Notes: generated by a model from the letters alone, not told the origin. Positions 15,368 through 33,328 are shown, numbered from the stretch's first letter. The stretch: 50,435 bases of DNA from Bacteroidales bacterium (GCA_040775045.1 JAXGTH010000004.1:1-50435); one strand, 5' to 3'. Made by a program: numbers and translations.

Positions 15368-15375
15368 GGCGGGGA

Positions 15376-16742: not shown

Positions 16743-16749
16743 TTATTGC

Positions 16750-16757: not shown

Positions 16758-16764
16758 CCGGCGC

Positions 16765-18891: not shown

Positions 18892-18914
18892 AAGTGCATG
18901 GATTACAAACAACA

Positions 18915-18992
18915 CAAATATAGATAATATTCCACGATTCGCTTCCCTGGTCATCAGCACCATGTAGTTTTGATCTAATTTCACTAACTTTG
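18915..18992. promoter_or_regulatory. Divergent promoter pair (GT2 / pepP)
   Basis: TATATTTG on minus (18915-18922) and TAACTTTG on plus (18985-18992). Confidence 0.55.
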
Positions 18993-19025
18993 CTGATCCT
19001 GAAATGCAATCATAAAAACGAAAAT

Positions 19026-20414
19026 ATGTTCAAACCAGAAGTTTATGCCGCCAGGAGAAAGCGGCTGAGAGAAATGTTGTCGGGTGGTGTCGTGCTGCTG
19101 CCAGGCAATGCCGAAGCATCCATGAATTATCCTGCCAACACCTACCATTACAGGCAGGACAGTGATTTTCTCTATTATTTCGGACATGACCACGACGGCC
19201 TGTCGGGGATCATCGATGTGGACGAAGGAAAGGAAATCCTTGTGGGAGATGATGTGAGCATGGACGACATCATCTGGATGGGGCCACAGCCACTCATGAA
19301 AGACCAGGCCCTTCAGTGCGGCACCGAGCATACCCTGCCGGGTGCCAAACTCCCTGCATACATACAGGATGCCCTCAAAAAGGGCCGCAAGGTACACATC
19401 CTCCCGCCATATCGTGGCGACCGATGGCTTTCGCTCGAAGGGATCTTCGGCATGAGCCACGGTGAGATCAGGAAATATGTTTCCGAAGAACTGATCAGGG
19501 CCGTGGTAAAGATGCGATCCGTAAAGGATGCGTTGGAGATCGCCGAGATTGAAAAAGCCATCGACACAGCCTATATCATGCATACCACCTCCATGAAGAT
19601 GGCCATGCCCGGTGTGGTCGAGCAGGAGATCGCAGGGACCATCGAGGGCATTGCCCTCGCCCACGGTGGACCCGTTTCTTTCCCCGTGATCCTCAGCGTC
19701 GACGGCCAGACACTGCACAACCATCATCACCATAACGTGCTGAAAGAAGGCCGCATGATGGTGACCGATGCCGGATGTGAAACCTCCATGCACTATGCCA
19801 GCGACATCACCCGCACCGTCCCGGTGGGAGGGAAATTCAACACCCGCCAGAAAGAGATCTACGAGATCGTGCTGAAAGCCAATATGGTGACCATCGAGGC
19901 CATCAGGCCCGGGATCTTCTACCGGGATGTACACCTGCTGGCTGCCCGTACCATCGCTGAAGGGCTGAAGGCATTGGGCATCATGAAAGGTGATACGGAA
20001 GAGGCCGTCAGGCAGGGTGCTCATGCCCTTTTCTTCCCTCACGGACTGGGGCATATGATGGGCCTCGACGTGCATGATATGGAAGGCCTGGGTGAAAACT
20101 ACGTGGGGTACGACGGCACCGTCAAGCGCAGCGAACAGTTCGGGCTGGCCTTCCTGAGGTTCGCCAGGAAACTGGAACCGGGTTTCGTGCTCACTGATGA
20201 GCCGGGCTGCTATTTTATCCCTGCCCTGATCGATCTCTGGAAGAGCGAAGGCAGGTTCACCGAATTCATCAATTACGACAAGACAGAGCTGTATAAGGAC
20301 TTTGGCGGGGTGAGGATCGAGGATGATATCCTGGTGACGGAAACCGGACACAAGGTGCTTGGAAAACCCATACCAAAGACAGTAGAGGAGGTAGAGGAGA
20401 CGATGACAGGGTAG
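19026..20414 (+). CDS. pepP: Xaa-Pro aminopeptidase (M24B), paralog 1
   Basis: YRQDSDFLY, DAG..YASDITRT, HGLGHMMGLDVHD, EPG, GVRIEDD. Confidence 0.9.
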   Translation: MFKPEVYAARRKRLREMLSGGVVLLPGNAEASMNYPANTYHYRQDSDFLYYFGHDHDGLSGIIDVDEGKEILVGDDVSMDDIIWMGPQPLMKDQALQCGTEHTLPGAKLPAYIQDALKKGRKVHILPPYRGDRWLSLEGIFGMSHGEIRKYVSEELIRAVVKMRSVKDALEIAEIEKAIDTAYIMHTTSMKMAMPGVVEQEIAGTIEGIALAHGGPVSFPVILSVDGQTLHNHHHHNVLKEGRMMVTDAGCETSMHYASDITRTVPVGGKFNTRQKEIYEIVLKANMVTIEAIRPGIFYRDVHLLAARTIAEGLKALGIMKGDTEEAVRQGAHALFFPHGLGHMMGLDVHDMEGLGENYVGYDGTVKRSEQFGLAFLRFARKLEPGFVLTDEPGCYFIPALIDLWKSEGRFTEFINYDKTELYKDFGGVRIEDDILVTETGHKVLGKPIPKTVEEVEETMTG

Positions 20415-20437
20415 AACAACGAAGAACAAACAACGAA
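20414..20437 (+). repeat. Short degenerate heptamer run
   Basis: GAACAAC GAAGAAC AAACAAC GAA starting at the pepP stop. Confidence 0.55.
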
Positions 20438-20459
20438 TTATGATCAATACAATCAAGTG

Positions 20460-20705
20460 ATGGATAAGATCAAAAGGGCAATCAGGATCATGAATATCGT
20501 CCGCATCGTGGCGATCGTGCTGGTGGTAGCCTCCGGGATCCTTTATTTCACTGCCAGGGAATATGCTTTCTATCCTGCCATTGCAGGCTTTGCCATCATC
20601 GCCCTGATCAACCTTCCCCTCAACATCTGGCTGGCCATGAAAAGGGAAAGGATGAAGAAGGAACATCTCAGGAAGTTTGACCAACAGGAAAAGGATGACC
20701 GCTAA
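20460..20705 (+). CDS. Small two-TM membrane protein of unknown function
   Basis: Two hydrophobic helices and a charged tail; fills the gap between co-oriented genes and overlaps the next start. Confidence 0.7.
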   Translation: MDKIKRAIRIMNIVRIVAIVLVVASGILYFTAREYAFYPAIAGFAIIALINLPLNIWLAMKRERMKKEHLRKFDQQEKDDR

Positions 20706-21489
20706 TATCCTCTACAAGGGCAGAAAGATCTGGTACCGTGATAAAGGGAAAGGGCAGGTGATCGTGTTGCTGCACGGTTTCCTCGAAAACATGGGCATGT
20801 GGGATTATTTTACCCGGAAGTTATCGGATCATTACCGCGTGGTCACTATCGACCTTCCCGGCTTTGGGCGCAGTGAATGCATCCACCGCGTTCATCTCAT
20901 GGAGCAGATGGCCACAGCGGTGAACAGGGTGCTGAAGGAACTGGAAATTACTAAATGCCTGATGATCGGGCATTCCATGGGAGGCTATGTCACACTGGCC
21001 TTTGCTTCGAAATACCCGCGAAAGCTGAAAGCTTTCGGGCTGCTGCATTCTCATGCCCTGGCCGACACCCCGGAGGGGAAACTTAACCGCAACAGGGCCA
21101 TCAACATTGTCAGCTCCGATCACGGCAATTTCATCATGAACTTCTTCCCCGAACTCTTTGCCCCGGCCAATGTGCAACGTTTCGGCAAGGAGATCGAAAA
21201 AATGTACCATGAAGCCCTGAAAACATCGCCCAAGGCCATCATCGCTGCCCTGGAAGGCATGAAATACCGTACCGACAAACTCGATGTGCTGGTAAAGTCG
21301 AGGGTACCGGTGCTTTTCATTCTCGGAAAACAGGACAGCCGGGTACCTTTTGAGAAGACCCTGGCACAGGCCGCCCTGCCCGCCGACGGCGAGATCATTG
21401 TCCTGAGCGACGTAGGGCACATGGGACATATAGAGCAACGTAAAAAGACGCTGAAAGCCATCGAGGGCTTTGCGGAAAAAGTATTCTGA
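20695..21489 (+). CDS. Alpha/beta hydrolase
   Basis: LLHGF, DLPGFG, nucleophile elbow GHSMGG, GKQD, GHM. Confidence 0.9.
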   Translation: MTANILYKGRKIWYRDKGKGQVIVLLHGFLENMGMWDYFTRKLSDHYRVVTIDLPGFGRSECIHRVHLMEQMATAVNRVLKELEITKCLMIGHSMGGYVTLAFASKYPRKLKAFGLLHSHALADTPEGKLNRNRAINIVSSDHGNFIMNFFPELFAPANVQRFGKEIEKMYHEALKTSPKAIIAALEGMKYRTDKLDVLVKSRVPVLFILGKQDSRVPFEKTLAQAALPADGEIIVLSDVGHMGHIEQRKKTLKAIEGFAEKVF

Positions 21490-21557
21490 GGGTCCGGCAT
21501 GCCAGAACAGCCTGTGTTAAGCAATGTTAATTCTTTACCCCTTTGTTACGAAATGTA

Positions 21558-21565
21558 TATTTTTG
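21558..21565 (+). promoter_or_regulatory. -7 element for the TMTC-like/KAS III unit
   Basis: TATTTTTG 40 nt upstream of ATG 21606. Confidence 0.55.
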
Positions 21566-21605
21566 TTCCCGATTCCAGGTAAAAAAGCACTAAGCTGTCG
21601 TCATT

Positions 21606-23642
21606 ATGGTAAAAGAACTGAAGGATCCGGCCCGTAGGGTTTCTGACAGGAACACCAGGATATTTTTTGTGGTTTTCATCATCGCATTCACCTTTATCCT
21701 TTACGGGAATACGGTCAGGAACGGATATTCGCTCGACGATTACATCATACAGGGTGTGGATACAGAGCTTTCGGGCAATTTCCTGAAATCCCTCAGTGAA
21801 ATCTTCACAACCACATACACCACGGTAAACACCGGCGACGGCATCGAAAAATCCTTCGGGTACCGGCCGGTGGTACGCCTGGTCTTTGCCGTGGAATATG
21901 CCATCTTCGGGGCCCGACCCGGCATCGGGCACTTCATCAACATCCTCTTCTACCTGGCAGTGGTGCTGTTGCTTTACCGCATCCTGCAACGCATCTTCAG
22001 GGGATACAATATCTGGTTCCCTTTTGTGATCACCTTACTTTTCATGGCCCACCCGGTCCATACCGAAGTGGTGGCCAGCTTGAAGAACAGGGACGAGTTG
22101 ATCAGCATGTTTCTATCCCTGCTGACACTCCTGCTGCTGCTGAAATACAGCGACAGGGGCAGGACACGGCACCTTTTGCTGGGCCTTTTGCTGTATGTGC
22201 TGGCTTTCCTTTCGAAGCCGACCGCCCTGGCATTCTGGCTGGTCTTCCCGCTCACGCTCTATTTCTTCACCGGCATGAAGATCAGGAGGATCCTGCTCAT
22301 CACGGGCCTTATCACACTGATGATCGTGATCGGGGGGATGATGCCTTTCTGGTTCCTCGACAGGGTAAGGGATGTTTCCATGGTCGACAACCCCCTGTAT
22401 TTCGAGGATAATTTCTGGAACATTCTGGGCACGGGTATGTACAGCCTGCTGTATTACCTGAGGCTCCTGGCAGTGCCCCACCCCCTCCTGTATTACTATG
22501 GTTACGACATGATCCCGGTGGTGAACCTTGCAAACCCCTGGGTAGTCCTCAGCATATTGCTTCACCTTGCCCTGCTGGGCATTGCCATCCTGAAGTTCAG
22601 GGAAAAGCATGTGATCTCATACGCCATACTCTTCTACCTGCTCACCATAGCCATGTACAGCAACATCGTTCAGCCGGTGCCGGGTATCATAGGCGAACGT
22701 TTCCTGCTGGTGCCCTCCATCGCTTTTGCCATGGCCCTGGCATGGGTGCTCTTCATGATCTTTAAGGCGGTGCCTACATCAACCTCCATCAGGGCAAGCC
22801 GGATTTTCTTCGTGACGGTCTTCACTGTCCTTATTCTTATCCCGTACACCTGGAAGACCATCGACAGGAACAGGGACTGGGCATCTGAAATCTCGCTGTT
22901 CCGGGCCGATGAGAAGCATCTCGACAGGTCGGTGAAGGCCCATGACCTCATGGGAACGATCATCATGCGCAACGTGGAGCGGGAACTGGCCAAACAGGTC
23001 AATGTGGCGAAATTCCTGATGCCGCAGATCAGGCAATCCATCGGGCATTTCGAAAGTGCCGTGGAGATCTGGCCCGGTCATGCCTCCTCCTGGAAGAACC
23101 TGGGCATGATCTATAACAATCCGAGGATTGCCGAGCATTTCCTTGCCAGTGGCGATACGCTCGAATACCTGCATTTTAAAAAGAAGGCCGTTTCGTCCTT
23201 CAAACAGGCACTGGTCCTGGAACCCGGCGACGGCAAGGCGCTGTTCAACCTGGGATTTACCTACGAGAACACGGGCAGGATGGATTCTGCCATGTTCTAT
23301 TACGAAAAATGCATCCGGCACAACCCCGGTATCATCAACCCGCGTTCGCGGCTTGCCGACCTGAAATTCATGATGGGCGATGTACAGGAGGCCATCAGGC
23401 TGAACAGGGAGATCATCCGTATCGACCCGATGGAGGCCCTGCCTTATGTAAGCTTCGGCAACTATTACATGATCATGGGCGATACGCTGAAAGCCATCGA
23501 AAGCTACGAGGAAGCCGCCAAAAGGAATACACGTCCCGAAGTGTTCGCTTTCCTTGCGGAATACTATTCCGGTGAAGGGAACGAAGAGAAAGCCCGGTAC
23601 TACCGTAACCTATACAACCAGGCCACGCGGCCGCAACCATGA
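21606..23642 (+). CDS. TMTC-like GT-C membrane glycosyltransferase with C-terminal TPR repeats
   Basis: LYGN..YSLDD, YRP, LFMAHPVHTEVV..RDEL, LSK, GERFL..PS, RNRDW, then TPR helices (ALFNLGFTY, PYVSFGNYY). Confidence 0.8.
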   Translation: MVKELKDPARRVSDRNTRIFFVVFIIAFTFILYGNTVRNGYSLDDYIIQGVDTELSGNFLKSLSEIFTTTYTTVNTGDGIEKSFGYRPVVRLVFAVEYAIFGARPGIGHFINILFYLAVVLLLYRILQRIFRGYNIWFPFVITLLFMAHPVHTEVVASLKNRDELISMFLSLLTLLLLLKYSDRGRTRHLLLGLLLYVLAFLSKPTALAFWLVFPLTLYFFTGMKIRRILLITGLITLMIVIGGMMPFWFLDRVRDVSMVDNPLYFEDNFWNILGTGMYSLLYYLRLLAVPHPLLYYYGYDMIPVVNLANPWVVLSILLHLALLGIAILKFREKHVISYAILFYLLTIAMYSNIVQPVPGIIGERFLLVPSIAFAMALAWVLFMIFKAVPTSTSIRASRIFFVTVFTVLILIPYTWKTIDRNRDWASEISLFRADEKHLDRSVKAHDLMGTIIMRNVERELAKQVNVAKFLMPQIRQSIGHFESAVEIWPGHASSWKNLGMIYNNPRIAEHFLASGDTLEYLHFKKKAVSSFKQALVLEPGDGKALFNLGFTYENTGRMDSAMFYYEKCIRHNPGIINPRSRLADLKFMMGDVQEAIRLNREIIRIDPMEALPYVSFGNYYMIMGDTLKAIESYEEAAKRNTRPEVFAFLAEYYSGEGNEEKARYYRNLYNQATRPQP

Positions 23643-24658
23643 TGAAAAGTTATATCAGGGCCATCAGCTACCACCTGCCCGGGCAGGCGCTCACCAACGA
23701 AGACCTGGCGAAGGAATTCCCTGGACTTAAGATCGACGACCTCACGAGGCTCACGGGTGTGCGGACGAGGTATATCGCCAGGGAAGAGGATACCGCCGCC
23801 GACCTGGCCTATGCGGCTGCCCTGCGTCTTTTTGAAGAACACCGGATCAGCCCCGGTGATATCGACCACATCATCTTCTGCGCCCAGGGAGCCGATTACC
23901 TGACCCCATCGACAGCCTGCCTGCTGCAGGACCGCCTGGGCATCCCCACCAATGCCGGCTCACTGGATATCAACCAGGGCTGTACGGGATACATCTACGG
24001 ACTGAGCACCGCCAACGGGCTGATCGCCACCGGCAATGCCAGGAATGTGCTACTGCTCACCTCGGTGAACATCTCCGAACTTATCCATCCGAAAGACAAG
24101 AGCGATAAGGCCATCTTCGGCGACGGCGCCGCCGCCACGCTGGTCAGCGCCGCCAATGACATGCCCGACTCGTATATCGGTGATTTTGTGTTTGGCACCG
24201 ATGGCAGCGGCTACGAGGCCATCATCATCAAAAACGGCGGGGCACGCTATCCCTACTACAAATATCCATCGGACGATTACACCGATGCTTCGGGCAATAT
24301 CCGCAACGACCGCAACTTCTATATGAACGGCGCAGCCGTGTTCACCTTTTCCGTGGAGAAGGTCCCCGTGATGATCAGGCAGCTTTTAGCGAAGGCCGGC
24401 ATCGGCCCTGAGGATGTTGACCTTTATGTGCTGCACCAGGCCAACCAGATCATCCTTGAGAGCATCTTCAGGAAAATGAAGATTCCGGAGGAGAAGCAAC
24501 TGTTCCACCTCGAAAATTGCGGCAACACGGTATCTTCGACCATCCCCATCGCACTGTACCATGCCATTGACGACGGTAAGCTTAAGCGGGGGGATACCCT
24601 GATACTTGCCGGATTTGGGGTGGGATTCTCCTGGGCGGGATGTGTGGTGAGGTATTAG
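23639..24658 (+). CDS. KAS III / FabH-like ketoacyl-ACP synthase 1
   Basis: Cys-His-Asn triad (NQGCTGY, LHQAN, CGNTVSS), FGDGAAAT, GFGVG.SW; ATGA overlap with the upstream gene. Confidence 0.9.
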   Translation: MMKSYIRAISYHLPGQALTNEDLAKEFPGLKIDDLTRLTGVRTRYIAREEDTAADLAYAAALRLFEEHRISPGDIDHIIFCAQGADYLTPSTACLLQDRLGIPTNAGSLDINQGCTGYIYGLSTANGLIATGNARNVLLLTSVNISELIHPKDKSDKAIFGDGAAATLVSAANDMPDSYIGDFVFGTDGSGYEAIIIKNGGARYPYYKYPSDDYTDASGNIRNDRNFYMNGAAVFTFSVEKVPVMIRQLLAKAGIGPEDVDLYVLHQANQIILESIFRKMKIPEEKQLFHLENCGNTVSSTIPIALYHAIDDGKLKRGDTLILAGFGVGFSWAGCVVRY

Positions 24659-26700
24659 GATTTGTCAAGCAGCAACCTTATCCCTTCCTCCACCAGCTGG
24701 TTCACGCTGCTGTCCTTCAGGAAGGATTCGATGGGCCACTCCACCCCAAAATGCCTGCTCACATCACGCTCGAGGCTGACGGCCATGATCGAGTCCAGCC
24801 CGTAAGATGAAAGGGGCTTGTCGGGATCGATGCTTTCAGGAGCGATTTTCAGTTGCCAGGCGATCCAGCTGATCAGCCAATCATGCAGGTAGCCCGGGCT
24901 AAAGTCTACCATGGGAGCGATGTTGCTTATCTCCGGATCTATCTCCCTTGAAGCCACAACTTTCAATTCTTTGTTGATCCATGCTTTGCGCATGGCCTGT
25001 CTCCTGACCTTTCCGCTGGTGGTTTTCAGCAGGCTTCCGGGGCTGACCAGAACGATTGCAAAGGCTTGTATGCCATGCTCTCCGACAACGGTATTCATAA
25101 TGGCCGCAAAAACCTCATCAGCATTCAGGCTCCTCATGGCTGTACGTTCCAGTTCCTGCACAATGACCAGCCTTTCCTCCTGCCCGATCTCCACAGAAAA
25201 TGCAGCGCAGGAATCTGTCCTGAGCGCATCATGGCTGTTGCCGGCAGTATATTCGATATCTGTGGCAAAAAAGTTGCTTCCTCTGATGATGATCAAATCC
25301 TTAAGCCTGCCGGTAATGTAAAGCTGTCCATCATGGATAAAACCCAGGTCGCCGGTCCTCAGCCAAGGCCCGTCACCTGTCCCTTCAATAAATGCGTTGA
25401 ACCTTTCGGTGGTTCTTTCCGGATCATCCCAGTATCCTTTAGCCACCGAAGGGCCTTTCAACCATATCTCTCCGATCTCATCAATAGCGGCAGGCCTTTT
25501 GCTTTCCGGATCGATGATGGCAACGCTCATGCCCAGCCATGGGAAACCGCAGGCAGTAAACACCCGGTCATGCTTTCTACCGGAGGGGACGATCCTCCCT
25601 TTTTCCAGCGCCACGGCATCGAGGCTCAGGTAAACAGGTTCCTTGCTATGATCCCCTCCGGTAGCGATCAGAACAGATTCGGCCAGGCCGTAGCACGGAT
25701 AAAACTGCCGCTCACTGAAGGATGCTGCACTGAACTTGCCGGCAAAGGATGCAAGGGTATCCCTCCTGACCGGCTCCGAACCGCAGAACATTGTAGTGAC
25801 CGATGAAAGGTCGAGTTTTGACAGTTCATCGTCTGGGATCCTGGATATGCAATACTCATAGGCGAAGTTGGGCCCGCCGGCATTGGTGGCCTTGTATTTC
25901 GTGATGTTCCTGAACCAGCAAAGCGGGTCCTGTATGAATTTCATGGGAGGGATGATCACATTTGTGGCCCCAAGATAGGCCGGTTGTATTAGACAGCCGA
26001 TAAGCCCCATATCATGAAAATTCGGCAGCCAGTTGACCCCGACCAGGTTTTCATCAAATCCAAAGGACCTCTTAATGCATTCCGAATTATGAATTATGTT
26101 GGCATGGGTAAGCACAACACCATTTGGTTCGCCTGTCGACCCTGAGGTGTACTGAATCATGGCAAGGTCATTGCCGTTAAGCCCTGGATCTGCCCATTCA
26201 TCCGACATCTTGTCCGCCACATCCTCAATAGCCAGCATGACCAATTCCCCAAGTTCAGGGATATCCCCCGTCAGGGCTTCGAGATCCTTCTTTATCTTCC
26301 TGGTGGTCAGAATTACTGACGGCTGTGCATTGCCTATTATTGCCCTGAAGCGCCGGTTTATCCTTTTCTTCCTGGGCGGATACGCCGGAACAGCAATCAT
26401 CCCTGCATAAAAACAACCATAAAGTGCCAGGATGAAATCGATCCCTGTCGGGAATAAGAGCAGCACACGGTCACCCCTTGAGCCTATCCCGCAAAGAGAT
26501 GCGGCAATGGCTTTCGACCTGACCGAAATGCCAGCACAGCTGACTCTTTCCCTTTCGTTTTCACCATCCTCGAGAAAAACATATACCGTTTTATCCGGTG
26601 TTCTATCAGCATGATGTTCAATCACGGAAACAAGGTTATCCCGCAGCAGATTTATCCCTTTATCGTTCGAGATCATCATTTGTATCTGGTCCTTACCCAT
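24655..26700 (-). CDS. Fatty acyl-AMP ligase (FAAL) fused to a C-terminal phosphopantetheine carrier domain
   Basis: QYTSGSTG, WLPNFHDMGLIG, PCYGLAES followed by a FAAL-type insertion, LRTGDLGF, GRLKDLII, KTTSGK, and YGLDSI near the C-terminus. Confidence 0.88.
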   Translation of the reverse strand: MGKDQIQMMISNDKGINLLRDNLVSVIEHHADRTPDKTVYVFLEDGENERERVSCAGISVRSKAIAASLCGIGSRGDRVLLLFPTGIDFILALYGCFYAGMIAVPAYPPRKKRINRRFRAIIGNAQPSVILTTRKIKKDLEALTGDIPELGELVMLAIEDVADKMSDEWADPGLNGNDLAMIQYTSGSTGEPNGVVLTHANIIHNSECIKRSFGFDENLVGVNWLPNFHDMGLIGCLIQPAYLGATNVIIPPMKFIQDPLCWFRNITKYKATNAGGPNFAYEYCISRIPDDELSKLDLSSVTTMFCGSEPVRRDTLASFAGKFSAASFSERQFYPCYGLAESVLIATGGDHSKEPVYLSLDAVALEKGRIVPSGRKHDRVFTACGFPWLGMSVAIIDPESKRPAAIDEIGEIWLKGPSVAKGYWDDPERTTERFNAFIEGTGDGPWLRTGDLGFIHDGQLYITGRLKDLIIIRGSNFFATDIEYTAGNSHDALRTDSCAAFSVEIGQEERLVIVQELERTAMRSLNADEVFAAIMNTVVGEHGIQAFAIVLVSPGSLLKTTSGKVRRQAMRKAWINKELKVVASREIDPEISNIAPMVDFSPGYLHDWLISWIAWQLKIAPESIDPDKPLSSYGLDSIMAVSLERDVSRHFGVEWPIESFLKDSSVNQLVEEGIRLLLDKS

Positions 26701-26748
26701 CTGTCTGGTATCGTTCTAAACAAAGTTTTTCATGCCTTACGGATGCGG

Positions 26749-28152
26749 TCAGAGATCCCTTTCAACCCCACTGATAAGCTCCGGAAAAGTATTGGCCATT
26801 GTCAGGATCTCCTTTTGCGATTCAAAAACAAGGTTGCGCATATGAAGGTTAGAAGAAAAAGCCCATGCAGCCGTGCCCGGGTTCTTCGTGATCTTCATGG
26901 TTTTAAGGAACTTGCGCTTGAGTGTCTTCAAGTCATAAAGTCTTTCCCAGTTCTCCTGAACCGACTGTTGAAAATCATGGGCTGACATCTGCTGAGGCTC
27001 GAAAACTGCCTCAGTATAGTTATACCTTTCCCAGTCTTCCGGGTAATTGGTATACAACAAGCGTCCTTCATCAAGGAACCTGTTGTACAGCAGTGTCCCG
27101 GGCAGGGGCGTCAGGATGGTTGCCTGCATGATATCGATATCGGCACTGAGCATATAACTGGTCCGGTTGTACATGGTTTCAGGCGTATCGTTTTCAAGGC
27201 CAAAAATGAAGGCTCCCATCACTGCAATTTCGTACCGGTGAATCTTGCGGTAGACTTCCGCATACCGGTCAACACCTATCCTCAGGTTTACACTTTTATT
27301 GGCTTTCTCCAACTGGTCGATCAGTTCAGATTCGATGCCCAGGAAGATCAGCTTGCATCCGCTCAGGGCAGCCCATTTCAGCAGCTCTTCATCCTCGGCG
27401 ATATTCATGCTGGCAGAACCGGCCCATTGCTTTTGGGCTCCTCTTTCAACGATGCCCCTGAAGAATTCCAGGGCATGGTTGCGTGCTGCCCTGCTGTAGC
27501 CCACAAAGTTGTCGTCGACGATATATACCCGCTCCTTGTCGATGGCGGCAAAGTCATCAACCGATTTCCCGACATTACGCAGGCGGTATTTGCTCCCGTT
27601 AAAAGTATGCACCGAGCAGAACTCGCATTTCATCGGGCATCCCCGTGTGGTCTGCATGCTGCCGAATTTATAATCTGGATGGTAGAGGTCGATCCGTGGA
27701 GAGGGAGAATTGGCCATTGCCGGCAACTTTGCATGGTAAAAGCGCTGCAGGCGCCTGTGAATGAAATCGTCGATGACCCTGGCCCAGATGTCCTCGGCCT
27801 CCCCGATCACCACTGCATCCACATATCTAGAAGCCTCCTCCGGCAACATGGAGGCATGTATCCCGCCGATCACGGTTGGGACCCTGTTCTTCCTGTACTC
27901 TGTAGCAATTTCGTAACAACGGTTGATCGTCGCCGTGAGGGAGGTCAGTCCCACAAGGTCGGCATCACGGTATTCGAAGGCCGTGAAATTCTCATCGAGG
28001 ATCTCCACCTCCCAGTCGGGGGGTGTCAGGGCTGCAATGATGCCCAGAGCCATGGGAGGATATATCGAATCAGGGTCAAGCTTCAACCCCTGCCGCCTTC
28101 TGTTTACGGGGTTGACGAGGAGTAATTTATATTTCTTCTTTTTTCCTGGCAT
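26749..28152 (-). CDS. Cobalamin-binding radical SAM protein, paralog 2
   Basis: LVNP..YPPMALGIIAALTP, GGIHAS, IGEAE, TTRGCPMKCEFC, VDDN, GIESE, TPLPGT. Confidence 0.9.
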   Translation of the reverse strand: MPGKKKKYKLLLVNPVNRRRQGLKLDPDSIYPPMALGIIAALTPPDWEVEILDENFTAFEYRDADLVGLTSLTATINRCYEIATEYRKNRVPTVIGGIHASMLPEEASRYVDAVVIGEAEDIWARVIDDFIHRRLQRFYHAKLPAMANSPSPRIDLYHPDYKFGSMQTTRGCPMKCEFCSVHTFNGSKYRLRNVGKSVDDFAAIDKERVYIVDDNFVGYSRAARNHALEFFRGIVERGAQKQWAGSASMNIAEDEELLKWAALSGCKLIFLGIESELIDQLEKANKSVNLRIGVDRYAEVYRKIHRYEIAVMGAFIFGLENDTPETMYNRTSYMLSADIDIMQATILTPLPGTLLYNRFLDEGRLLYTNYPEDWERYNYTEAVFEPQQMSAHDFQQSVQENWERLYDLKTLKRKFLKTMKITKNPGTAAWAFSSNLHMRNLVFESQKEILTMANTFPELISGVERDL

Positions 28153-28183
28153 CTGGGATCACCTCTGGCGGGCACAGTCAATA

Positions 28184-29602
28184 TTACCTGAACGGGCTGG
28201 ATTTCAGCAGTTCACGGTTACTCTCATCAAGTCCGAAAATGTCTTCAATATTTTTCCTCGGGCGGATACCCTCATAAACGAGATTGTAATACTGAAGGTT
28301 AGAACCGTACGACCATATTGCGGCCAGCGGGCTCCTGGTCTGTTTGAGTGTACGCAGGAACTTCTTTTTCAGGATATGGTCGTTATACAGGGCATCCCAG
28401 TTCTTCCGGACCTCTTTCATGAACACCTCCCGGTTCATGTTCCGGTGCTCGAACACCACATCCACGAAATCATAACGCTGCCAGTCGCCGGGGTAATTGT
28501 TATACCTGATCTTGCCTTCGGCCTCCATCCTCCTGTAAAGGCCAGTGCCCGGAAGGGGGGTCAGCACGGTGGCCTGCACGGCATCGATGGCCGCATTATT
28601 GATGTATTCCGTGCGGCGGGCCATGGTCTCCGGGGTGTCGCTTTCCAGCCCGTAAATGAATGCCCCCAGCACACTGATGCCGTATTTGTGGATCTTCCTG
28701 AACACCTCGTCGTAATGGTCGATGCCGATCCTGATGTTGAGCTTTTTGTTCGTTTCCTCGAGCTGGTCGATGCGCTCCGATTCTATGCCGAGCAGCACCA
28801 TCACACATCCCGCTTTGGCCGCCAGTTCCAGCACCTCCTCATTGTCGGCGAAGTTCATGGATGCGGAGCAGAACCACTGTTTCCTGATGTCCCGCTCGAT
28901 CATCCCCCTGAACAGGTCGATGGCGCGCTGCTGCGAACGTTTCCCGTAACCGATGAGGTTGTCGTCGACGAAATAGATCTTGTCATGTTCAATCGTCTCA
29001 AGTTCATCCAGCACCTCTTCCACCGGCCTTACCCTGTAGCGGTCGCCGTTGAACTCATGCACCGAACAGAAGTCGCATTTCATCGGACATCCCCGGGTGG
29101 TCTGTATGCTTGCAAAACGGTAATTCCTGTTGAAGAGATGGCGGGCCGGATAAACGGCATTTTTGAACGGGAGAAGTTTACCATGATAAGCGGGTTTAAG
29201 CCTTCCCTGCTCAAAATCCCCGATCACCGATCTCCATACGCTCTCCGCCTCGCCCGTGACCACCACGTCGACATACTTTTGAGCTTCTTCGGGCACCATG
29301 GAGGCATGGATGCCACCCAGTACGGTGGGGATCCCTTTCTCACGGTAAATCTGCGCAAGCTCGTATGCCCTGGTCACGCTGGAGGTAAGCGCCGTGAAGC
29401 CCACCAGGTCAGCATCCCTGTATGAGAAACGCTCCCAGTTCTCATCCATGATCTCCACCTCCCAGTGTTCCGGGGTGAGGGTGGATACAATACCCAGGCC
29501 AATGGGCGGGTAGATCACATGGCTGTGGAGGATCAGCCCCTCCCGGATGGTACTGAGCGGATTGATGAGCAGCAATTTGTATTTTTTCTTCTGCACCGGC
29601 AT
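28184..29602 (-). CDS. Cobalamin-binding radical SAM protein, paralog 3
   Basis: LINP..YPPIGLGIVSTLTP, GGIHAS, TGEAE, TTRGCPMKCDFC, VDDN, GIESE, TPLPGT. Start moved to MPVQKKK. Confidence 0.9.
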   Translation of the reverse strand: MPVQKKKYKLLLINPLSTIREGLILHSHVIYPPIGLGIVSTLTPEHWEVEIMDENWERFSYRDADLVGFTALTSSVTRAYELAQIYREKGIPTVLGGIHASMVPEEAQKYVDVVVTGEAESVWRSVIGDFEQGRLKPAYHGKLLPFKNAVYPARHLFNRNYRFASIQTTRGCPMKCDFCSVHEFNGDRYRVRPVEEVLDELETIEHDKIYFVDDNLIGYGKRSQQRAIDLFRGMIERDIRKQWFCSASMNFADNEEVLELAAKAGCVMVLLGIESERIDQLEETNKKLNIRIGIDHYDEVFRKIHKYGISVLGAFIYGLESDTPETMARRTEYINNAAIDAVQATVLTPLPGTGLYRRMEAEGKIRYNNYPGDWQRYDFVDVVFEHRNMNREVFMKEVRKNWDALYNDHILKKKFLRTLKQTRSPLAAIWSYGSNLQYYNLVYEGIRPRKNIEDIFGLDESNRELLKSSPFR

Positions 29603-29608
29603 GGCCAA

Positions 29609-29764
29609 CAAAGTTAAACATAATATCATGTATCACGGGCAACAGTTTTGTGGTGACCGCACGCCCGGCAGCAAAAGGAAAAGATACATGTTCTTTCTGT
29701 ACGGATTTATTATCAATTGAGAAAACCTGATGCGCCATACTCAATGCAATTTTTTTTACTTTTG
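29609..29764. promoter_or_regulatory. Divergent promoter pair for rSAM3-rSAM2-FAAL (minus) and ACP-KASIII-SDR (plus)
   Basis: TAACTTTG on minus (29609-29616) and TACTTTTG on plus (29757-29764). Confidence 0.65.
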
Positions 29765-29776
29765 CAAAAAACAGAC

Positions 29777-30028
29777 ATGCAGCATATGGTTCCAATCGAG
29801 GAATTTATCGTAAAGGTGGAGAATGAGTTCGAGGACATGGAGAAGGGTATGCTTTCCCCCGACAGCGTGATCCGTGAACACTTCAACTGGGATTCGATCA
29901 ATGCCCTGATCTTTATCGCCCACGTGAACGTGGAATATGACGTGGTGATCACTGCCGACGACCTGATGAACTCAAATACGGTGCGCGACCTTTATAACCT
30001 GGTATCATCAAAGGCTCAGGCCGCATAA
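29777..30028 (+). CDS. Acyl carrier protein, pathway-specific type
   Basis: Acidic, about 80 aa, WDSI phosphopantetheine site, TVRDLY. Start 29777 or 29786. Confidence 0.88.
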   Translation: MQHMVPIEEFIVKVENEFEDMEKGMLSPDSVIREHFNWDSINALIFIAHVNVEYDVVITADDLMNSNTVRDLYNLVSSKAQAA

Positions 30029-30037
30029 TTCAGCCCC

Positions 30038-31096
30038 ATGGCTATTTTCAGCATCCCTGACATTCATGTTGCAGGCATAGCCGCCTCGGTTCCCGCCAGG
30101 GAAGTGAGCAACAGGGACTATGAACTCCTGTCGGAAAAAGAGCAGGAATTCTTTATCAAGACCGTGGGTGTGGAATATCGCCGTGTAGCGGATCCGGGCA
30201 TGGCCACTTCCGACTTCTGCTTCGCAGCAGCGGAAAAGCTCATTGACGGGCTGGGCTGGGCACGGGAAGACATCGAACTGCTGATCTTTGTTTCGCAGAG
30301 CCGCGACTATCTCATCCCGGCCACGGCAGGCATCCTGCAGGACCGGCTCGGGCTCCCGAAGTCATGCGCAGCGCTTGATGTGAGCCTGGGCTGTTCGGGA
30401 TATGTTTACGGCCTGTCGCTCATGGGGAGAATGATGGCAGGGGGTGCCATCCGCAAGGGGCTTCTGCTGGTGGGCGATGTCTCCACGCAGAATACTTCCT
30501 ACAGGGACAAGAGCACCTATCCCCTGTTTGGCGACGCAGGAACGGCCACCGCCATGGAATACCGCAAGGGTGCGCCCGACATGGCCTTCAACCTGCAGAC
30601 CGACGGGTTGGGGTACAAGGCCATCATCATCCCCGACGGGGGGATACGCAATTTCGCTTCAAGGGAACACTCCTTCGAATACGAGGATATTTCAGAAGGC
30701 ATCAGCAGGAACAGGCTCCACATCGCCCTCGACGGCCTTGAGGTGTTCAACTTTTCGCTCCGCGAAGTAGCACCCAATGTCAGGGCCCTGCTTGAATATA
30801 GCGGGAGAAGCATGGAAGAGATCGATTGCTTCGTGATGCACCAGGCCAACAGGCTCATGAACGAATCGATCCGGAAAAAGCTGAAGATCGAACCGGAAAA
30901 ATACCCGTATTCTATCGGCAGGTTCGGGAATACCAGTTCGGCATCCATCCCGCTGACCATCGTTACGGAACTGTCGGCCCGGGTCCGGAACAGCAAGCTT
31001 GTCATGCTTCTCTCCGGCTTTGGCGTGGGACTGTCGTGGGGCAGCGCGATCGTGACGGCCGACCGGGTCTATTGTCCTGCAGTCATCGAACTTTAA
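30038..31096 (+). CDS. KAS III / FabH-like ketoacyl-ACP synthase 2
   Basis: SLGCSGY, FGDAGTAT, MHQAN, FGNTSSASIP, GFGVGLSW. Confidence 0.9.
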   Translation: MAIFSIPDIHVAGIAASVPAREVSNRDYELLSEKEQEFFIKTVGVEYRRVADPGMATSDFCFAAAEKLIDGLGWAREDIELLIFVSQSRDYLIPATAGILQDRLGLPKSCAALDVSLGCSGYVYGLSLMGRMMAGGAIRKGLLLVGDVSTQNTSYRDKSTYPLFGDAGTATAMEYRKGAPDMAFNLQTDGLGYKAIIIPDGGIRNFASREHSFEYEDISEGISRNRLHIALDGLEVFNFSLREVAPNVRALLEYSGRSMEEIDCFVMHQANRLMNESIRKKLKIEPEKYPYSIGRFGNTSSASIPLTIVTELSARVRNSKLVMLLSGFGVGLSWGSAIVTADRVYCPAVIEL

Positions 31097-31106
31097 AATT
31101 TATCAT

Positions 31107-31856
31107 ATGTCGTTTTGCAGTCTCAGGGGAAAAACCATTTTCGTTACCGGCGCCTCGTCGGGCATCGGCATGCAGGCCGCCCTGCAGGCTGCCCGCCAGG
31201 GGGCCACGGTGTTCATCACCGGCAGGAACCGGGATAAACTCAATGAAACCCTGGATTCGCTTCCGGGAGAGGGGCACGGCATGATGGCCTGCGATCTCAC
31301 CGATGATGCCGGTCGCGCAGCACTGGTGAACGAACTGCCCGAACTCCATGGACTGGTACACTGCGCCGGCATCGTGGGCCCTACGCCGGCAAAATACATC
31401 CGGCAGGAGGATATCGACCGCATGCTGGGCATCAACTACCGGGTGCCGGTGCTGCTCACGGCAGCCATCCTGCAGAAGAAAAAGCTCCTCAACAACGCTT
31501 CGGTGGTGCTCATGTCGTCGATCGTCACGCGAAGCCCCTATTTCGGGGGCACGCTCTATGCCGGGGCCAAAGGGGCTATCGAAGCCTATACCAAAACGCT
31601 GGCCCTCGAGCTTGTCGAGCGCGGCATCAGGGTCAACTGCCTCTCGCCGGGCCTGGTCAATACGCCGCTGATCACCGATCCGGCCAAGGAATCGAACCCC
31701 GCCATCGTGGAAGACTCCATGCAAAGATACCTGGCCAAGTACCCCATGGGCGTTGGAGAAACTGAGGATGTGGCCAATGCCATCATTTTCCTGCTGGCCG
31801 ACGAGTCGAAGTGGATCTCCGGCGCCAACATCGATATGGGAGCAGTGGTGAGATAG
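31107..31856 (+). CDS. SDR oxidoreductase (FabG-like ketoreductase)
   Basis: TGASSGIG, HCAG, YAGAK (YxxxK), IRVNCLSPG. Confidence 0.9.
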   Translation: MSFCSLRGKTIFVTGASSGIGMQAALQAARQGATVFITGRNRDKLNETLDSLPGEGHGMMACDLTDDAGRAALVNELPELHGLVHCAGIVGPTPAKYIRQEDIDRMLGINYRVPVLLTAAILQKKKLLNNASVVLMSSIVTRSPYFGGTLYAGAKGAIEAYTKTLALELVERGIRVNCLSPGLVNTPLITDPAKESNPAIVEDSMQRYLAKYPMGVGETEDVANAIIFLLADESKWISGANIDMGAVVR

Positions 31857-31913
31857 AGAAACGTTGCATTACAGGTTAACACGCTTTGGCAGGCAGTGTT
31901 TCTGGGATGGAAC

Positions 31914-31948
31914 CGGGCATCAGGCACCGGGCACCGGGCATCGGGTGA
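31914..31948 (+). repeat. Heptamer tandem repeat, 5 units
   Basis: CGGGCAT CAGGCAC CGGGCAC CGGGCAT CGGGTGA. Confidence 0.85.
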
Positions 31949-31966
31949 TTGACAATAGACATTAAG

Positions 31967-33328
31967 CTATAGATTCACTATACTCCACAACTCATCTCCC
32001 CTTTTCCCTTTTCCATTTTCCCTTTTCACTTTTCCATTTTCCATTTTCATGATTCTCTCTATGTCTTCCGCCTTCACCGGGATCTGTGCGGTCAGGTTCA
32101 CCGGGCCCCCGGCAGTCACCAGGATGTCGTCTTCGATCCGGATGCCGATGTTTTCTTCACGGATATACAGCCCCGGCTCGCAGGTAAGCACCATACCGGG
32201 TTGCAGGGTGTCGTACTTTGATCCGACATCATGCACATCCAGGCCGATGGGGTGCGAAGTGCCGTGCATGAAGTATTTCATGTAAAGAGGTTTCTCCGGA
32301 TCCTGTTCCTTCACATCCGCTTCGCTGAAAAGGCCCAGGCTGATCATCTCCTTCTCCATGAGCCTGTTCACTTCCTTATTGAATGCATCGATGGTGGTAC
32401 CCGGCATGAGCAGGCCGATGGCCGCATCGTGGACCCTCAGCACGGCATCATAGCATGCCCTCTGCCTGCCGCTGAATTTACCGCCCACCGGTATGGTACG
32501 GGTGATGTCGGCTGCATAGTTGGCATATTCAGCCCCGAAATCCATGAGCAGCAGGTCACCGTCGCGGCAAACCCTGTCGTTATCGATGTAATGCAGCACA
32601 CAGCTGTTTGCCCCCGAGGCGATGATGGGCCGGTATGCATTTCCCGTGGCCCCGTTCACAGTGAATGCGTATTCGATCTCCGCCTGTACCTGGTATTCCA
32701 TCATGCCGGGCTGCAGCGAGCGCAGTACACGCTCGAAAGCCAGGCCGGTGATCTCTCCGGCTTTCCGGATCAGGCCGATCTCGGTTTCCGATTTGATCTT
32801 TCTCAGTCCGGCCAGCAGGGGTGCCGCACGCTCGAAGGTATGCAGCGGGAACCTCTCCTTCAGGTCATTGGCAAAGCGCAGGTCCCTGTATGGTACCGGG
32901 TTCGAATACTTCGGGTATTCATTCATGTTAAGGTAAACCTTCCCGGCCCACATCATCAGGTCCCTGAGGTAAAAATCAAAGTCTTTGGTCCAGTGAACGC
33001 TACTGATACCGGAAGCCTGCCGGGCTTTTTCCTTTGTGAGCTTCTGCCCCTCCCAGATGGCGATCTGCTCGCTCGTCTCCTTCAGGAAAAGCATCTCTCG
33101 CAGCTCAGGGTTGGGATGCCCGGGCGCCAGCAACAGGATTGTATCCTCCTGGTCGATGCCGCCCAGGTAAAACAGGTCCGATTGCTGCCTGAACGGGAAG
33201 TTCTGATCGCCGTTGCGCGGGTATTCATCACTGGAATGGAAGATGGCAAGGGCGCCGGAAGCCAGCATGTCGGAAAAGCGCTTCCGGTTCCCGATAAAAA
33301 AAGTCGGGTCGATAGGGTCGTATCTCAT
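31967..33328 (-). CDS. pepP: Xaa-Pro aminopeptidase (M24B), paralog 2
   Basis: FRQQSDLFY, LHY, DFGAEY..YAADITRT, HGTSHPIGLDVHD, EPGLY, GIRIEDD. Confidence 0.9.
   Translation of the reverse strand: MRYDPIDPTFFIGNRKRFSDMLASGALAIFHSSDEYPRNGDQNFPFRQQSDLFYLGGIDQEDTILLLAPGHPNPELREMLFLKETSEQIAIWEGQKLTKEKARQASGISSVHWTKDFDFYLRDLMMWAGKVYLNMNEYPKYSNPVPYRDLRFANDLKERFPLHTFERAAPLLAGLRKIKSETEIGLIRKAGEITGLAFERVLRSLQPGMMEYQVQAEIEYAFTVNGATGNAYRPIIASGANSCVLHYIDNDRVCRDGDLLLMDFGAEYANYAADITRTIPVGGKFSGRQRACYDAVLRVHDAAIGLLMPGTTIDAFNKEVNRLMEKEMISLGLFSEADVKEQDPEKPLYMKYFMHGTSHPIGLDVHDVGSKYDTLQPGMVLTCEPGLYIREENIGIRIEDDILVTAGGPVNLTAQIPVKAEDIERIMKMENGKVKRENGKGKRGDELWSIVNL
32002..32050. repeat. Heptamer tandem repeat, 7 units, inside the 3' end of pepP paralog 2
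   Basis: TTTTCCC TTTTCCA TTTTCCC TTTTCAC TTTTCCA TTTTCCA TTTTCAT. Confidence 0.9.

Follow-up and report, generated by a model that had tools for sequence, protein, structure and literature searches.

The Arn system, which supplies lipid A with aminoarabinose, and the Gtr and CsbB-YfhO systems follow a three-component glycosylation logic. The gene set for mycobacterial sulfolipid-1 comprises FadD23, Pks2, Stf0, PapA, and MmpL8, and the first enzyme of sulfonolipid synthesis in Bacteroidota is cysteate synthase. For lipid-modifying radical S-adenosylmethionine (SAM) enzymes, the outline of a 2026 review names Tes, Mss, Gms, GrsA/B, Gmm, Cds, HpnH/J/P/R, Jaw5, and the ladderane enzyme; the review gives methylation as the commonest activity of the class with a cobalamin (B12)-binding domain and, by term search, mentions neither Bacteroid* nor fatty acyl-AMP ligases (FAAL) (PMC13459092). 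A review of the latter enzymes describes the reaction logic of the olefin synthase Ols and lists one Bacteroidetes product, corramycin; a term search of it gave no association with radical SAM enzymes (PMC11837247). Here we describe a locus at positions 13214-31856 of a DNA stretch of 50,435 nucleotides from a Bacteroidales bacterium (GCA_040775045.1 JAXGTH010000004.1:1-50435; the whole stretch is referred to as the window), which combines a FAAL-carrier fusion, three B12 radical SAM paralogs (rSAM1-rSAM3), a stand-alone acyl carrier protein (ACP), two β-ketoacyl-ACP synthases III (KAS III), and a short-chain dehydrogenase/reductase (SDR) with glycosyltransferases, a flippase, and a sulfotransferase. 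The locus is real, conserved, and uncharacterized. We regard it as probably a single biosynthetic locus, specific to one lineage (an uncultured family of Bacteroidales), that decorates the cell envelope with an acylated, sulfated sugar.

Extent and Gene Order of the Locus

A sequence-only reading of the window had placed a candidate pathway at 21606-31856. It named the right genes, all eight of which are present with the domains ascribed to them (Pfam, NCBIfam), but its limits miss a third of the locus. Domain searches and synteny define a larger conserved unit of about 14 genes whose true left end is 13214. The additional left-hand members are the third B12 radical SAM paralog, a MOP flippase, a sulfotransferase of the type that uses 3'-phosphoadenosine-5'-phosphosulfate (PAPS), an ArnC/GtrB-like family 2 glycosyltransferase (GT2), and a PseH-like GNAT.

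The boundaries follow from comparison with relatives. Forty of them were searched with the FAAL-carrier fusion (FAAL-ACP), and their loci were retrieved and then compared by tblastn with the proteins of the window. The gene order in these relatives is M24b-M24a-hydrolase-GTC-KAS3b-FAAL-rSAM2-rSAM3-ACP-KAS3a-SDR-GT2-SulfoT-Wzx-rSAM1-GNAT. Both block ends were retrieved in four relatives. The entire block is contiguous in G013 and G016, and in G019 it is contiguous without M24b only; G004 has the complete gene set in an internally shuffled order. Partial blocks of consistent order were found within the stretches retrieved from G009, G010, G011, and G018. The flanks are housekeeping genes, yicC-gmk-nadD on the left and a second M24 peptidase (pepP) with sdhCAB on the right. 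Synteny of these genes extends to other genera, with protein identities of 45-82%, so that chance alone would not account for the arrangement.

Relative to the order given above, the part of the window that runs from M24a to SDR is inverted. The inverted arrangement is also found in the closest relative (L034, with an rSAM3 93% identical), and the inversion junctions are bridged by short contigs from two public runs, at 18662-19113 and 31488-32455. The contigs of the four DNA runs compared are short pieces only, and interpretation was confined to the parts that they cover. The features of the locus are as follows.

13214-13879, minus strand: GNAT N-acyltransferase, PseH-like, 221 aa (Acetyltransf_3, 31.4 bits; start from alignment with 14 orthologs; a longer reading of the open reading frame (ORF), to 14071, is probably untranslated)
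13976-15367, plus strand: rSAM1, B12-binding radical SAM protein (Radical_SAM 63.3, B12-binding 50.1 bits; true start probably the ATG at 14000)
15310-16725, plus strand: MOP/Wzx-type flippase (Polysacc_synt 61.9, Polysacc_synt_3 57.2, MatE 39.3 bits; syntenic in relatives; start uncertain, with ortholog ORFs of about 435 aa)
16765-17973, plus strand: PAPS-type sulfotransferase, Sulfotransfer_3 (Pfam, 113.3 bits)
17968-18984, minus strand: GT2 polyprenyl-phosphate glycosyltransferase, ArnC/GtrB-like (Glycos_transf_2, 102.3 bits)
18990-20414, plus strand: M24 Xaa-Pro aminopeptidase, M24a (Peptidase_M24 159.3, AMP_N 84.4 bits)
20460-20702, plus strand: small hydrophobic ORF of 80 aa, unannotated, between M24a and the hydrolase (conserved in L034, 72%, and L037, 64%)
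20677-21489, plus strand: alpha/beta hydrolase, loosely associated (Abhydrolase_1, 86.3 bits)
21606-23642, plus strand: GT-C glycosyltransferase (residues about 10-441) with C-terminal TPR domain (about 442-677; TPR_1, 61.5 bits, and model alignment)
23639-24658, plus strand: KAS III b (KAS3b; ACP_syn_III_C 113.3, ACP_syn_III 76 bits)
24655-26700, minus strand: FAAL-carrier fusion (AMP-binding 218.8, DIP2-like C-domain 50.8, PP-binding 48.4 bits)
26749-28152, minus strand: rSAM2, B12-binding radical SAM protein (Pfam; CxxxCxxC)
28184-29602, minus strand: rSAM3, B12-binding radical SAM protein, 472 aa from the ATG at 29602 (ORF to 29629; Pfam, homolog length)
29603-29785, no strand: divergent intergenic region between rSAM3 and ACP (sequence reading)
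29786-30028, plus strand: stand-alone ACP, 80 aa (within ORF 29717-30028; PP-binding 28.4 bits)
30038-31096, plus strand: KAS III a (KAS3a; Pfam; PDB 4efi, E 2.3e-71)
31107-31856, plus strand: SDR, FabG-like ketoreductase (adh_short_C2 146.8 bits; NCBIfam FabG-type matches below cut-offs)

Two operons diverge from the rSAM3-ACP spacer. The gaps first reported within them agree with the ORF coordinates (31 and 48 nt in rSAM3-rSAM2-FAAL, 9 and 10 nt in ACP-KAS3a-SDR), as does the convergence of KAS3b on the FAAL gene, with an overlap of 4 nt; the ATGA overlap of the GT-C and KAS3b genes is read directly in the sequence. The spacer itself is present, but its limits had to be moved from 29609-29764. 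The most likely start of rSAM3 is 29602, because its homologs have 472 aa and the sequence fits, and the ACP start proposed earlier, at 29765, is a Gln codon, the real one being at 29786; the corrected starts give a spacer of about 29603-29785. It contains TACTTTTG at 29757-29764, in agreement with TAnnTTTG, the -7 motif of Bacteroidota, which makes the site a candidate -7 element. A sigma-70 scan of 13000-32500, which is uninformative for this phylum, gave fewer promoter-like sites than shuffled sequences (11 versus 17.7) and a similar number of terminators (20 versus 17.8).

Distribution and Co-occurrence

The comparison panel comprised 40 genomes, 22 from the same family and 18 from other families in the order. 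FAAL-ACP with at least 47% identity is found in 16/22 and 0/18 of them, respectively (the best match from another family, in G025, has 40%), and the radical SAM family at E<=1e-100 in 20/22 and 2/18. An rSAM3 alignment, used to scan one genome per species, yielded 67 loci. All come from uncultured metagenome-assembled genomes (MAGs) labeled as Bacteroidales, Bacteroidota, or Lentimicrobiaceae, plus three short contigs labeled otherwise, as Saprospiraceae (also Bacteroidota), Dehalococcoidia, and WOR-3.

Co-occurrence was counted in the 30 of these loci that have 10 kb on each side of the radical SAM match. The partners found are ACP, KAS3a, and SDR (18 loci each), the sulfotransferase (16), GT2 (15), GNAT (14), FAAL-ACP (14), Wzx (13), cysteate synthase (11), KAS3b (8), and GT-C (7), and no locus is devoid of partners (0/30); because the loci are kin and were gathered through radical SAM similarity, these counts describe a lineage rather than independent events. 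Of the 26 loci with the complete set ACP-KAS3a-SDR-GT2, 22 have the four genes in colinear order. Absence of the genes from one another's vicinity in other genomes had been proposed as a test by which the suggested pathway could fail; the same genes do occur together elsewhere. The claimed tie to GT-C holds only in a part of the lineage (7/30 full-flank loci, compared with 18/30 for ACP, KAS3a, and SDR).

Near-identical DNA is present in sequencing runs labeled as anaerobic digester and activated sludge, eight runs from six studies sharing at least 0.29 of words. In four such runs compared, the pieces at least 99% alike range from 35/65 to 26/33 per run; the best-matching run may be the source sample.

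Radical SAM Paralogs

Each of the three paralogs has an N-terminal B12-binding domain followed by a radical SAM core with the CxxxCxxC motif (Pfam, alignment). They are 51-58% identical overall, rSAM1 sharing 58% with rSAM3 and 51-52% with rSAM2. In a quick IQ-TREE phylogeny of 122 sequences from the loci and the window, with SH-like approximate likelihood ratio (SH-aLRT) support, three groups are separated: (i) the rSAM3 clade (39 rows, support 100), which opens its operon and points away from a divergent ACP or Wzx gene; (ii) the rSAM2-type clade (47 rows, support 99), which is second in the operon and is followed by FAAL-ACP or cysteate synthase; and (iii) the rSAM1 group (33 rows, support 88), which adjoins GNAT and Wzx/SulfoT. 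Each clade keeps its own position and neighbors; thus, the paralogs are old. Such old, position-bound clades argue for three distinct steps in one pathway and against a chance mosaic.

A mosaic of independent neighboring modules, namely a capsule-type acylation cassette, a Gtr/Arn-like glycosylation system, and a set of radical SAM enzymes, would explain why modules have been gained and lost among related loci, and in the window the block has already been reshuffled by an inversion. Nevertheless, the radical SAM genes are interleaved with the other modules (rSAM1 with Wzx-SulfoT, rSAM3 and rSAM2 with ACP and FAAL), their positions are kept as clades across genera, and the block is present or absent as a whole across the family. 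We consider the mosaic very unlikely.

The number of radical SAM copies varies from one to five per locus with full flanks. In one MAG locus (L083:2034-11413), five paralogs stand in a row between ACP and FAAL-ACP.

None of rSAM1-rSAM3 reaches the cut-off of a named subfamily (HpnR, HpnJ, BchE, ladderane radical SAM, PhpK, ApyD, and others). The best NCBIfam scores are about 70-100 bits against cut-offs of 251-775 bits, and the full-length likeness of rSAM1 to HpnR and HpnJ is weak (95-99 bits, family cut-offs 360-650). A search of the ESM Atlas with rSAM3 returned only generic B12 radical SAM clusters, and its plasmid matches in Fulvitalea and Clostridium share no gene context with the locus.

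A link between these enzymes and carriers is visible in gene order, rSAM3 being divergent from ACP and the rSAM2-type gene being followed by FAAL-ACP. A predicted complex of rSAM3 with ACP scored 0.53, the best of three controls scoring 0.01, and was marked as 'weak support'; this mark is reached by 58/80 solved complexes and 2/110 mismatched pairs, and a score of 0.60 or less at this mark occurs in only 7 of those 80 solved complexes plus both mismatches. The prediction runs share at least 93% of contacts, and the pLDDT of the partner is at least 83. Together, gene adjacency and the predicted complex weakly back the proposal that the radical SAM enzymes may act on carrier-bound acyl chains.

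Another group of B12 radical SAM homologs was seen on a plasmid of Citrobacter portucalensis (L102, NZ_CP134684.1, 52126-63512), where five tandem copies with 30-35% identity neighbor a GH3-type adenylating enzyme, an N-acetyltransferase, a PAP2 phosphatase, and a fatty acid desaturase. In this cultured enterobacterium, they seem to form a further uncharacterized multi-radical-SAM cluster of lipid type.

Acyl Module

The adenylating domain of FAAL-ACP is nearest to experimentally defined FAALs in the PDB. Its top matches are the FAAL domain of a polyketide synthase (PKS) from Picosynechococcus PCC 7002 (7r7f, 495 bits; this identity is taken from a table in PMC11837247) and the Legionella FAAL (3kxw, 427 bits), followed by FadD32 (304 bits) and FadD23. 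The curated FAAL cut-offs are not reached, with 406.1 against 775 bits for NF004509 and 387.7 against 975 bits for FadD32 (NF038339). By its sequence, then, the enzyme appears FAAL-like but outside any named equivalog. The fused carrier domain (PP-binding, 48.4 bits) keeps the GLDS serine motif, and Ser37 of the stand-alone ACP is invariant in 22/22 orthologs.

In KAS3a, the GCSG, HQAN, and GNT motifs align with the catalytic positions of PDB 4efi. The Cys-His-Asn positions are also kept in KAS3b: GCSG/GCTG, HQAN, and GNT align between both KAS III and solved FabH-type chains, and we assume for these residues the usual catalytic roles. As both proteins keep Cys, His, and Asn, they look like condensing enzymes and not like the acyltransferase offshoots of the fold. 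With NF006829 (cut-off 249 bits), KAS3b scores above the threshold (271.1) and KAS3a below it (224.3). As stated in the sequence-only reading, the ORFs scanned across the window contain no domain of a PKS or nonribosomal peptide synthetase.

That reading had also noted that cassettes of this kind occur in polysaccharide loci, and a homologous one was indeed found in a capsule locus of Parabacteroides distasonis (NZ_OY725812.1). It consists of an acetyltransferase, a carrier, ACP, an AMP-binding enzyme, KAS III, and SDR; identities to the window proteins are 44% for KAS III, 36% for ACP, and 35% for SDR. This cassette supports the view that the product of the ACP-KAS3a-SDR operon is an acyl group destined for a sugar.

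The same module could, in principle, serve a dissociated olefin-synthase-like route whose product would be a branched terminal alkene: the chain loaded by FAAL-ACP would be extended, reduced, and sulfated on the 3-hydroxyl before the hydrolase drives decarboxylative elimination. The best solved relative of the FAAL is the PCC 7002 domain, the sulfotransferase matches the olefin-synthase and CurM sulfotransferase domains, and none of the ketosynthase, ketoreductase, ACP, and hydrolase functions is lacking. However, in searches with its C-terminal part as well as with its model, the sulfotransferase is at least as near to the protein tyrosine sulfotransferases TPST1/2. The best PDB matches of the hydrolase are generic esterases; the CurM thioesterase 3qit aligns only with residues 27-127 (E 1e-10) and ranks far lower, and the hydrolase is dispensable in relatives, being absent beside GT-C in L025 and L048. 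The route would also leave GT2, GT-C, the flippase, and GNAT unexplained, though they are said to be more tightly linked to the radical SAM genes than FAAL is. We therefore give it only a slim chance. An olefin synthase module proper, with sulfotransferase and CurM-type thioesterase on ketosynthase-acyltransferase-ketoreductase-ACP, was considered and rejected: there is no acyltransferase and no modular ketosynthase, and the hydrolase is generic. A free-standing, trans-acting Ols-like system was not found in the literature search.

FAAL-ACP has further homologs outside the locus. A paralog lies on contig C50 of the genome of the window among unrelated genes, encoding a LytTR two-component system, acetyl-CoA carboxylase, ComEC, and LpxB. 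In G025, which belongs to another family, the FAAL-ACP genes adjoin an MBOAT acyltransferase; the region (L027:1305-12018) contains two sulfotransferases, the MBOAT protein with a 333-aa partner without Pfam family, two FAAL-ACP, and a flippase, and is situated about 20 kb from the part that holds GTC-FAAL-rSAM-ACP-KAS-SDR-GT2-GNAT.

Glycosylation, Export, and Sulfation

The link to glycans turned out to be stronger than first claimed. The ACP-KASIII-SDR operon ends in an ArnC/GtrB-like glycosyltransferase, and a flippase, a sulfotransferase, and GNAT belong to the block. Residues 36-334 of GT2 align with residues 27-326 of the 341-residue GtrB (5ekp, E 4.3e-42), including the C-terminal membrane region, and the match with ArnC (9hwj, E 6.6e-42) is full-length. 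In NCBIfam, GT2 scores 169 bits, below the 529-bit cut-off of the ArnC equivalog. The full-length alignments and the sub-cut-off score place it in the class of polyprenyl-phosphate glycosyltransferases, but not as ArnC. It also matches PgfS (132 bits).

GT-C is more distant from described families, with a Pfam PMT_2 score of 23.9 bits against a cut-off of 26.1. In its AlphaFold model (pLDDT 76.9), the membrane part spans residues of about 10-441. By VIA-align, in which helical models may reach Z of about 13-14 by chance, the model aligns with Pmt1-Pmt2 (6p2r_B, Z 18.8, rmsd 4.7, 351 residues), Pmt4 (9e61, Z 17.7), and ArnT (5f15, Z 16.5, 334 residues), as well as with ALG12, AglB, PglB, and AftA. 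A Foldseek search of the PDB with the whole model gave TPR proteins only. The L43-D44-D45 motif, with its acidic pair in the first external loop, is invariant in 11/11 orthologs, and we presume that it has the role of the acidic motif of GT-C enzymes.

The AlphaFold model of the sulfotransferase has a pLDDT of 84.1. The nearest solved folds are those of TPST1/2 (E about 2e-11), followed by the sulfotransferase domains of the olefin synthase (4gox, 5.9e-9) and CurM (2.4e-8); with these two kinds of relatives, the acceptor of the sulfotransferase is not fixed. An APS kinase is present in the genome, which makes the supply of PAPS plausible. GNAT is weakly PseH-like, scoring 60.9 bits against an NCBIfam PseH cut-off of 93.1 and matching the PDB PseH 4xpk with E 1.4e-5.

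Two other explanations bear on the fate of the product. In the first, it would be a free membrane or outer-membrane sulfoglycolipid, an analog of sulfolipid-1 made by other enzymes: radical-SAM-methylated acyl chains would be esterified or amidated to a sulfated sugar, the MOP protein would export the lipid, GT2 would use a non-undecaprenyl lipid, and GT-C would be an accessory. FAAL, sulfotransferase, glycosyltransferase, and exporter are found together, GT-C is present in only 7/30 related loci, and copy numbers vary, with two sulfotransferases and two FAAL-ACP in G025 and two sulfotransferases in L051. On the other hand, GT2 aligns along its full length with polyprenyl-phosphate glycosyltransferases, no acyltransferase of PapA or LPLAT type was found in the window, and GT-C is translationally coupled to KAS3b where present. 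This scenario is doubtful, but it deserves to be kept in mind.

In the second, the substrate would be a protein or peptide, i.e., a lipidated, glycosylated, and sulfated polypeptide produced by a TPST-like sulfotransferase, a RimJ/RimL-type GNAT, a PMT-like GT-C/TPR protein, and B12 radical SAM enzymes of the type acting on RiPPs, peptides made by the ribosome and modified after translation. The proximity of the sulfotransferase to TPST1/2, the protein O-mannosyltransferase as the top structural match of GT-C, and the PgfS match of GT2 all agree with this, as do ApyD-type matches of the radical SAM proteins and their homologs in a thiazole/oxazole-modified microcin (TOMM) cluster. However, no conserved precursor-like ORF was found in the cluster spacers, the sole conserved small ORF being the 80-aa hydrophobic protein; protease, leader-binding, and cyclodehydratase genes are lacking, and the ACP/KAS/SDR/FAAL content points to acyl chemistry. 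A polypeptide substrate is thus highly improbable.

The Cysteate Synthase Variant

In 14/67 loci (L051, L052, L055, L057-L060, L063, L064, L066, L067, L069, L071, and L073), a cysteate synthase gene (TIGR03844, 487.9 bits, cut-off 324.9; e.g. L057:12820-14115) comes immediately after the rSAM2-type gene, in the same orientation. These loci come from Lentimicrobiaceae and related MAGs. The rSAM-cysteate synthase unit is divergent from Wzx-SulfoT in L055 and L060 and abuts rSAM1-SulfoT-GT2-SDR-KAS3a-ACP-SulfoT-Wzx in L051, L052, and L058; the remaining neighbors look like housekeeping genes. The genome of the window has its own cysteate synthase, on another contig (C45:10065-11270).

The adjacency may reflect a functional link or inherited synteny. 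If functional, the radical SAM enzymes, sulfotransferase, and flippase could tailor sulfonolipids of the capnine/sulfobacin type or their acyl-ACP precursors, with FAAL/ACP/KAS/SDR supplying the chain. The position of cysteate synthase directly behind the rSAM2-type gene, its divergence from Wzx-SulfoT in two loci, and its presence in the genome of the window speak for this explanation. Yet in that genome it is on a separate contig, no gene of the α-oxoamine synthase (cysteate acyltransferase) type was seen among the neighbor ORFs scanned in the cysteate synthase loci, and GT2 and GT-C would be left without a role. Moreover, as the 14 loci belong to related genomes, inherited synteny could explain the adjacency. 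A sulfonolipid-tailoring function of the locus is distinctly improbable. The capnine/sulfonolipid pathway itself was rejected for the window, which does not have cysteate synthase together with cysteate acyltransferase in or near the locus.

Proposed Pathway

The observations concern the identity, synteny, and conservation of genes; from domains and gene order we infer the chemistry, the substrate, and the acceptor. On this basis we propose, with a rough probability of 0.4, that the locus makes a radical-modified acyl group and joins it to a sulfated sugar carried by polyprenyl phosphate, after which the product is flipped and passed to the envelope. FAAL would adenylate a fatty or other carboxylic acid and load it onto the fused carrier. 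A KAS III with intact Cys-His-Asn would extend the chain with malonyl-ACP on the stand-alone ACP, and the SDR would reduce the 3-keto group. Each of the three B12 radical SAM enzymes would alter an unactivated carbon while the chain is on its carrier, C-methylation being the likeliest change. The acyl group would then be transferred to a sugar by the PseH-like GNAT or by a KAS III, the ArnC/GtrB-like GT2 would place the sugar on polyprenyl phosphate, and the sulfotransferase would add sulfate from PAPS. Finally, the MOP flippase would carry the lipid-linked product across the membrane, and the GT-C/TPR enzyme would hand it to a periplasmic acceptor.

Several observations weigh against this proposal. 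Many related loci are without FAAL-ACP, KAS3b, or GT-C; the co-occurrence counts are bound to one lineage; and in Lentimicrobiaceae and related MAGs cysteate synthase fills the operon slot held by FAAL-ACP in the family of the window. Every NCBIfam match of the radical SAM proteins is far under its cut-off, and the predicted rSAM3-ACP complex is only weak. A Clostridium homolog of the radical SAM proteins (35-39% identity; the range for TOMM-cluster homologs is 30-39%) is located in a YcaO/TOMM peptide cluster; thus, homology leaves the substrate class unfixed, since the distant family spans several classes. The nearest solved relatives of the sulfotransferase are protein tyrosine sulfotransferases. 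ORF domain scans found no gene for amino-sugar or nucleotide-sugar synthesis in the block, which makes the sugar substrate of GNAT a guess, and neither an initiating phosphoglycosyl transferase nor Wzy was found in 13214-31856. No RNA run is among the 20 sequencing runs listed.

A bolder version of the proposal is that the radical SAM enzymes add methyl branches, or make another C-C change, to the carrier-bound acyl chain, providing anaerobic Bacteroidales with an O2- and PKS-independent way to multiply branched lipids for a sulfated acyl-sugar envelope lipid, an analog of sulfolipid-1 built by unrelated enzymes. The radical SAM count per locus (1-5) would set the number of modifications, and in sister lineages these enzymes would feed sulfonolipids via cysteate synthase. 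Taken as a whole, this version is unlikely.

If the radical SAM enzymes do act on acyl carriers, tandem cobalamin radical SAM enzymes would have, for the first time outside the proposed ladderane route, a substrate class of the fatty-acid type bound to ACP, and strict anaerobes would be able to branch or functionalize saturated chains without oxygen or PKS. Acyl chemistry coupled to an Arn/Gtr-like lipid-linked sugar system and to sulfation points to an envelope molecule not yet described, which could serve as a biomarker lipid and could affect the interaction of cells with phages and surfaces. The varying copy numbers of radical SAM, FAAL, and sulfotransferase genes are natural experiments. 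The interpretation offered by the sequence-only reading, i.e., a carrier-tethered acyl chain that is radical-modified, condensed, reduced, and transferred to a glycan, glycolipid, or glycoprotein, is reasonable, but the support for it is only partial.

Neighboring Genes

The two M24 peptidases are neighbors rather than members of the locus, in the case of M24a probably so, and the same probably applies to the alpha/beta hydrolase. In relatives, M24a lies outside the block, next to its paralog M24b and sdhCAB; it was probably carried into the block by the inversion. These Xaa-Pro aminopeptidase paralogs (18990-20414 and 31967-33328) are about 28% identical and adjoin each other in relatives. 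The window has them on either side of the inverted segment, and the inversion has one of its breakpoints between the two.

A LytTR response regulator and a His_kinase sensor are encoded at 7217-11348, about 2 kb to the left of the cluster, across yicC-gmk-nadD. Another LytTR/His_kinase pair directly adjoins the paralogous FAAL-ACP on contig C50 (G000:C50, L028:13051-14876). The presence of such pairs near both FAAL-ACP copies may be a coincidence or may reflect shared regulation.

Farther to the right, the window contains a gene of the gliding-motility lipoprotein GldH (39297-39866), which fits Bacteroidota with gliding or type IX secretion machinery. A second glycan-type group at 43862-49977 consists of GT2, a methyltransferase, an FrhB/FdhB-like protein, an LPG_synthase_TM protein, and another GT2, with two ORFs matching no Pfam family (42169-43764 and 47782-49209).

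Comparison with Known Systems

Full-text literature searching, in which supplementary files were not covered and MIBiG and antiSMASH were not run, found no publication on this gene set, in agreement with the initial impression that no characterized cluster has it. No named functional family is matched in full, and several described systems each resemble a part of the locus.

The closest likeness in glycosylation is to the Arn, Gtr, and CsbB-YfhO systems, with which the locus has in common a full-length ArnC/GtrB-type GT2, a flippase, and a GT-C protein that aligns with ArnT and PMT. The differences are that the flippase is of the MOP/Wzx type and not ArnE/F or GtrA, GT-C carries a TPR domain, GT2 remains far under the ArnC cut-off (169 vs 529 bits), and genes of the ArnA/B type for the sugar are lacking. 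In addition, the locus contains FAAL, ACP, KAS III, SDR, three B12 radical SAM paralogs, and the sulfotransferase. With Wzy-dependent capsule or O-antigen loci only the Wzx-type flippase is common, as a phosphoglycosyl transferase, Wzy, and several glycosyltransferases were not found.

In the P. distasonis capsule cassette, homologous ACP, KAS III, and SDR genes are near an adenylating enzyme, a second carrier, and an acyltransferase. That locus, whose function is known by annotation, is a Wzy-type capsule locus with EpsG, several glycosyltransferases, and an initiating sugar transferase, whereas it has no radical SAM protein, FAAL-type ligase, sulfotransferase, or GT-C. Ols and CurM share with our locus a FAAL-ACP loading didomain, ketosynthase, ketoreductase, ACP, and a sulfotransferase of the same Pfam family. 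Here, these are free-standing, type II-like proteins with KAS III in place of a modular ketosynthase-acyltransferase, there is no CurM-type thioesterase, and glycosylation and radical SAM genes are added.

Mycobacterial sulfolipid-1 is a functional analogy only: it has FAAL-activated, methyl-branched chains on a sulfated sugar and is exported to the outer envelope. The locus has no PKS and no methylmalonyl route, so that any branches would come from the B12 radical SAM enzymes, and its sulfotransferase (another member of the family), acyltransferases, and exporter are different. The B12-binding and radical SAM architecture is that of HpnR/HpnP, GrsA/B, Gmm, and the ladderane enzyme, whereas the FAAL/ACP/KAS III and glycosylation context in Bacteroidales is outside the systems in the outline of the review (PMC13459092). 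In summary, the locus is a variant on known envelope-glycoconjugate and acyl-carrier chemistry, and it would represent a new kind of pathway only if its radical SAM enzymes act on acyl carriers.

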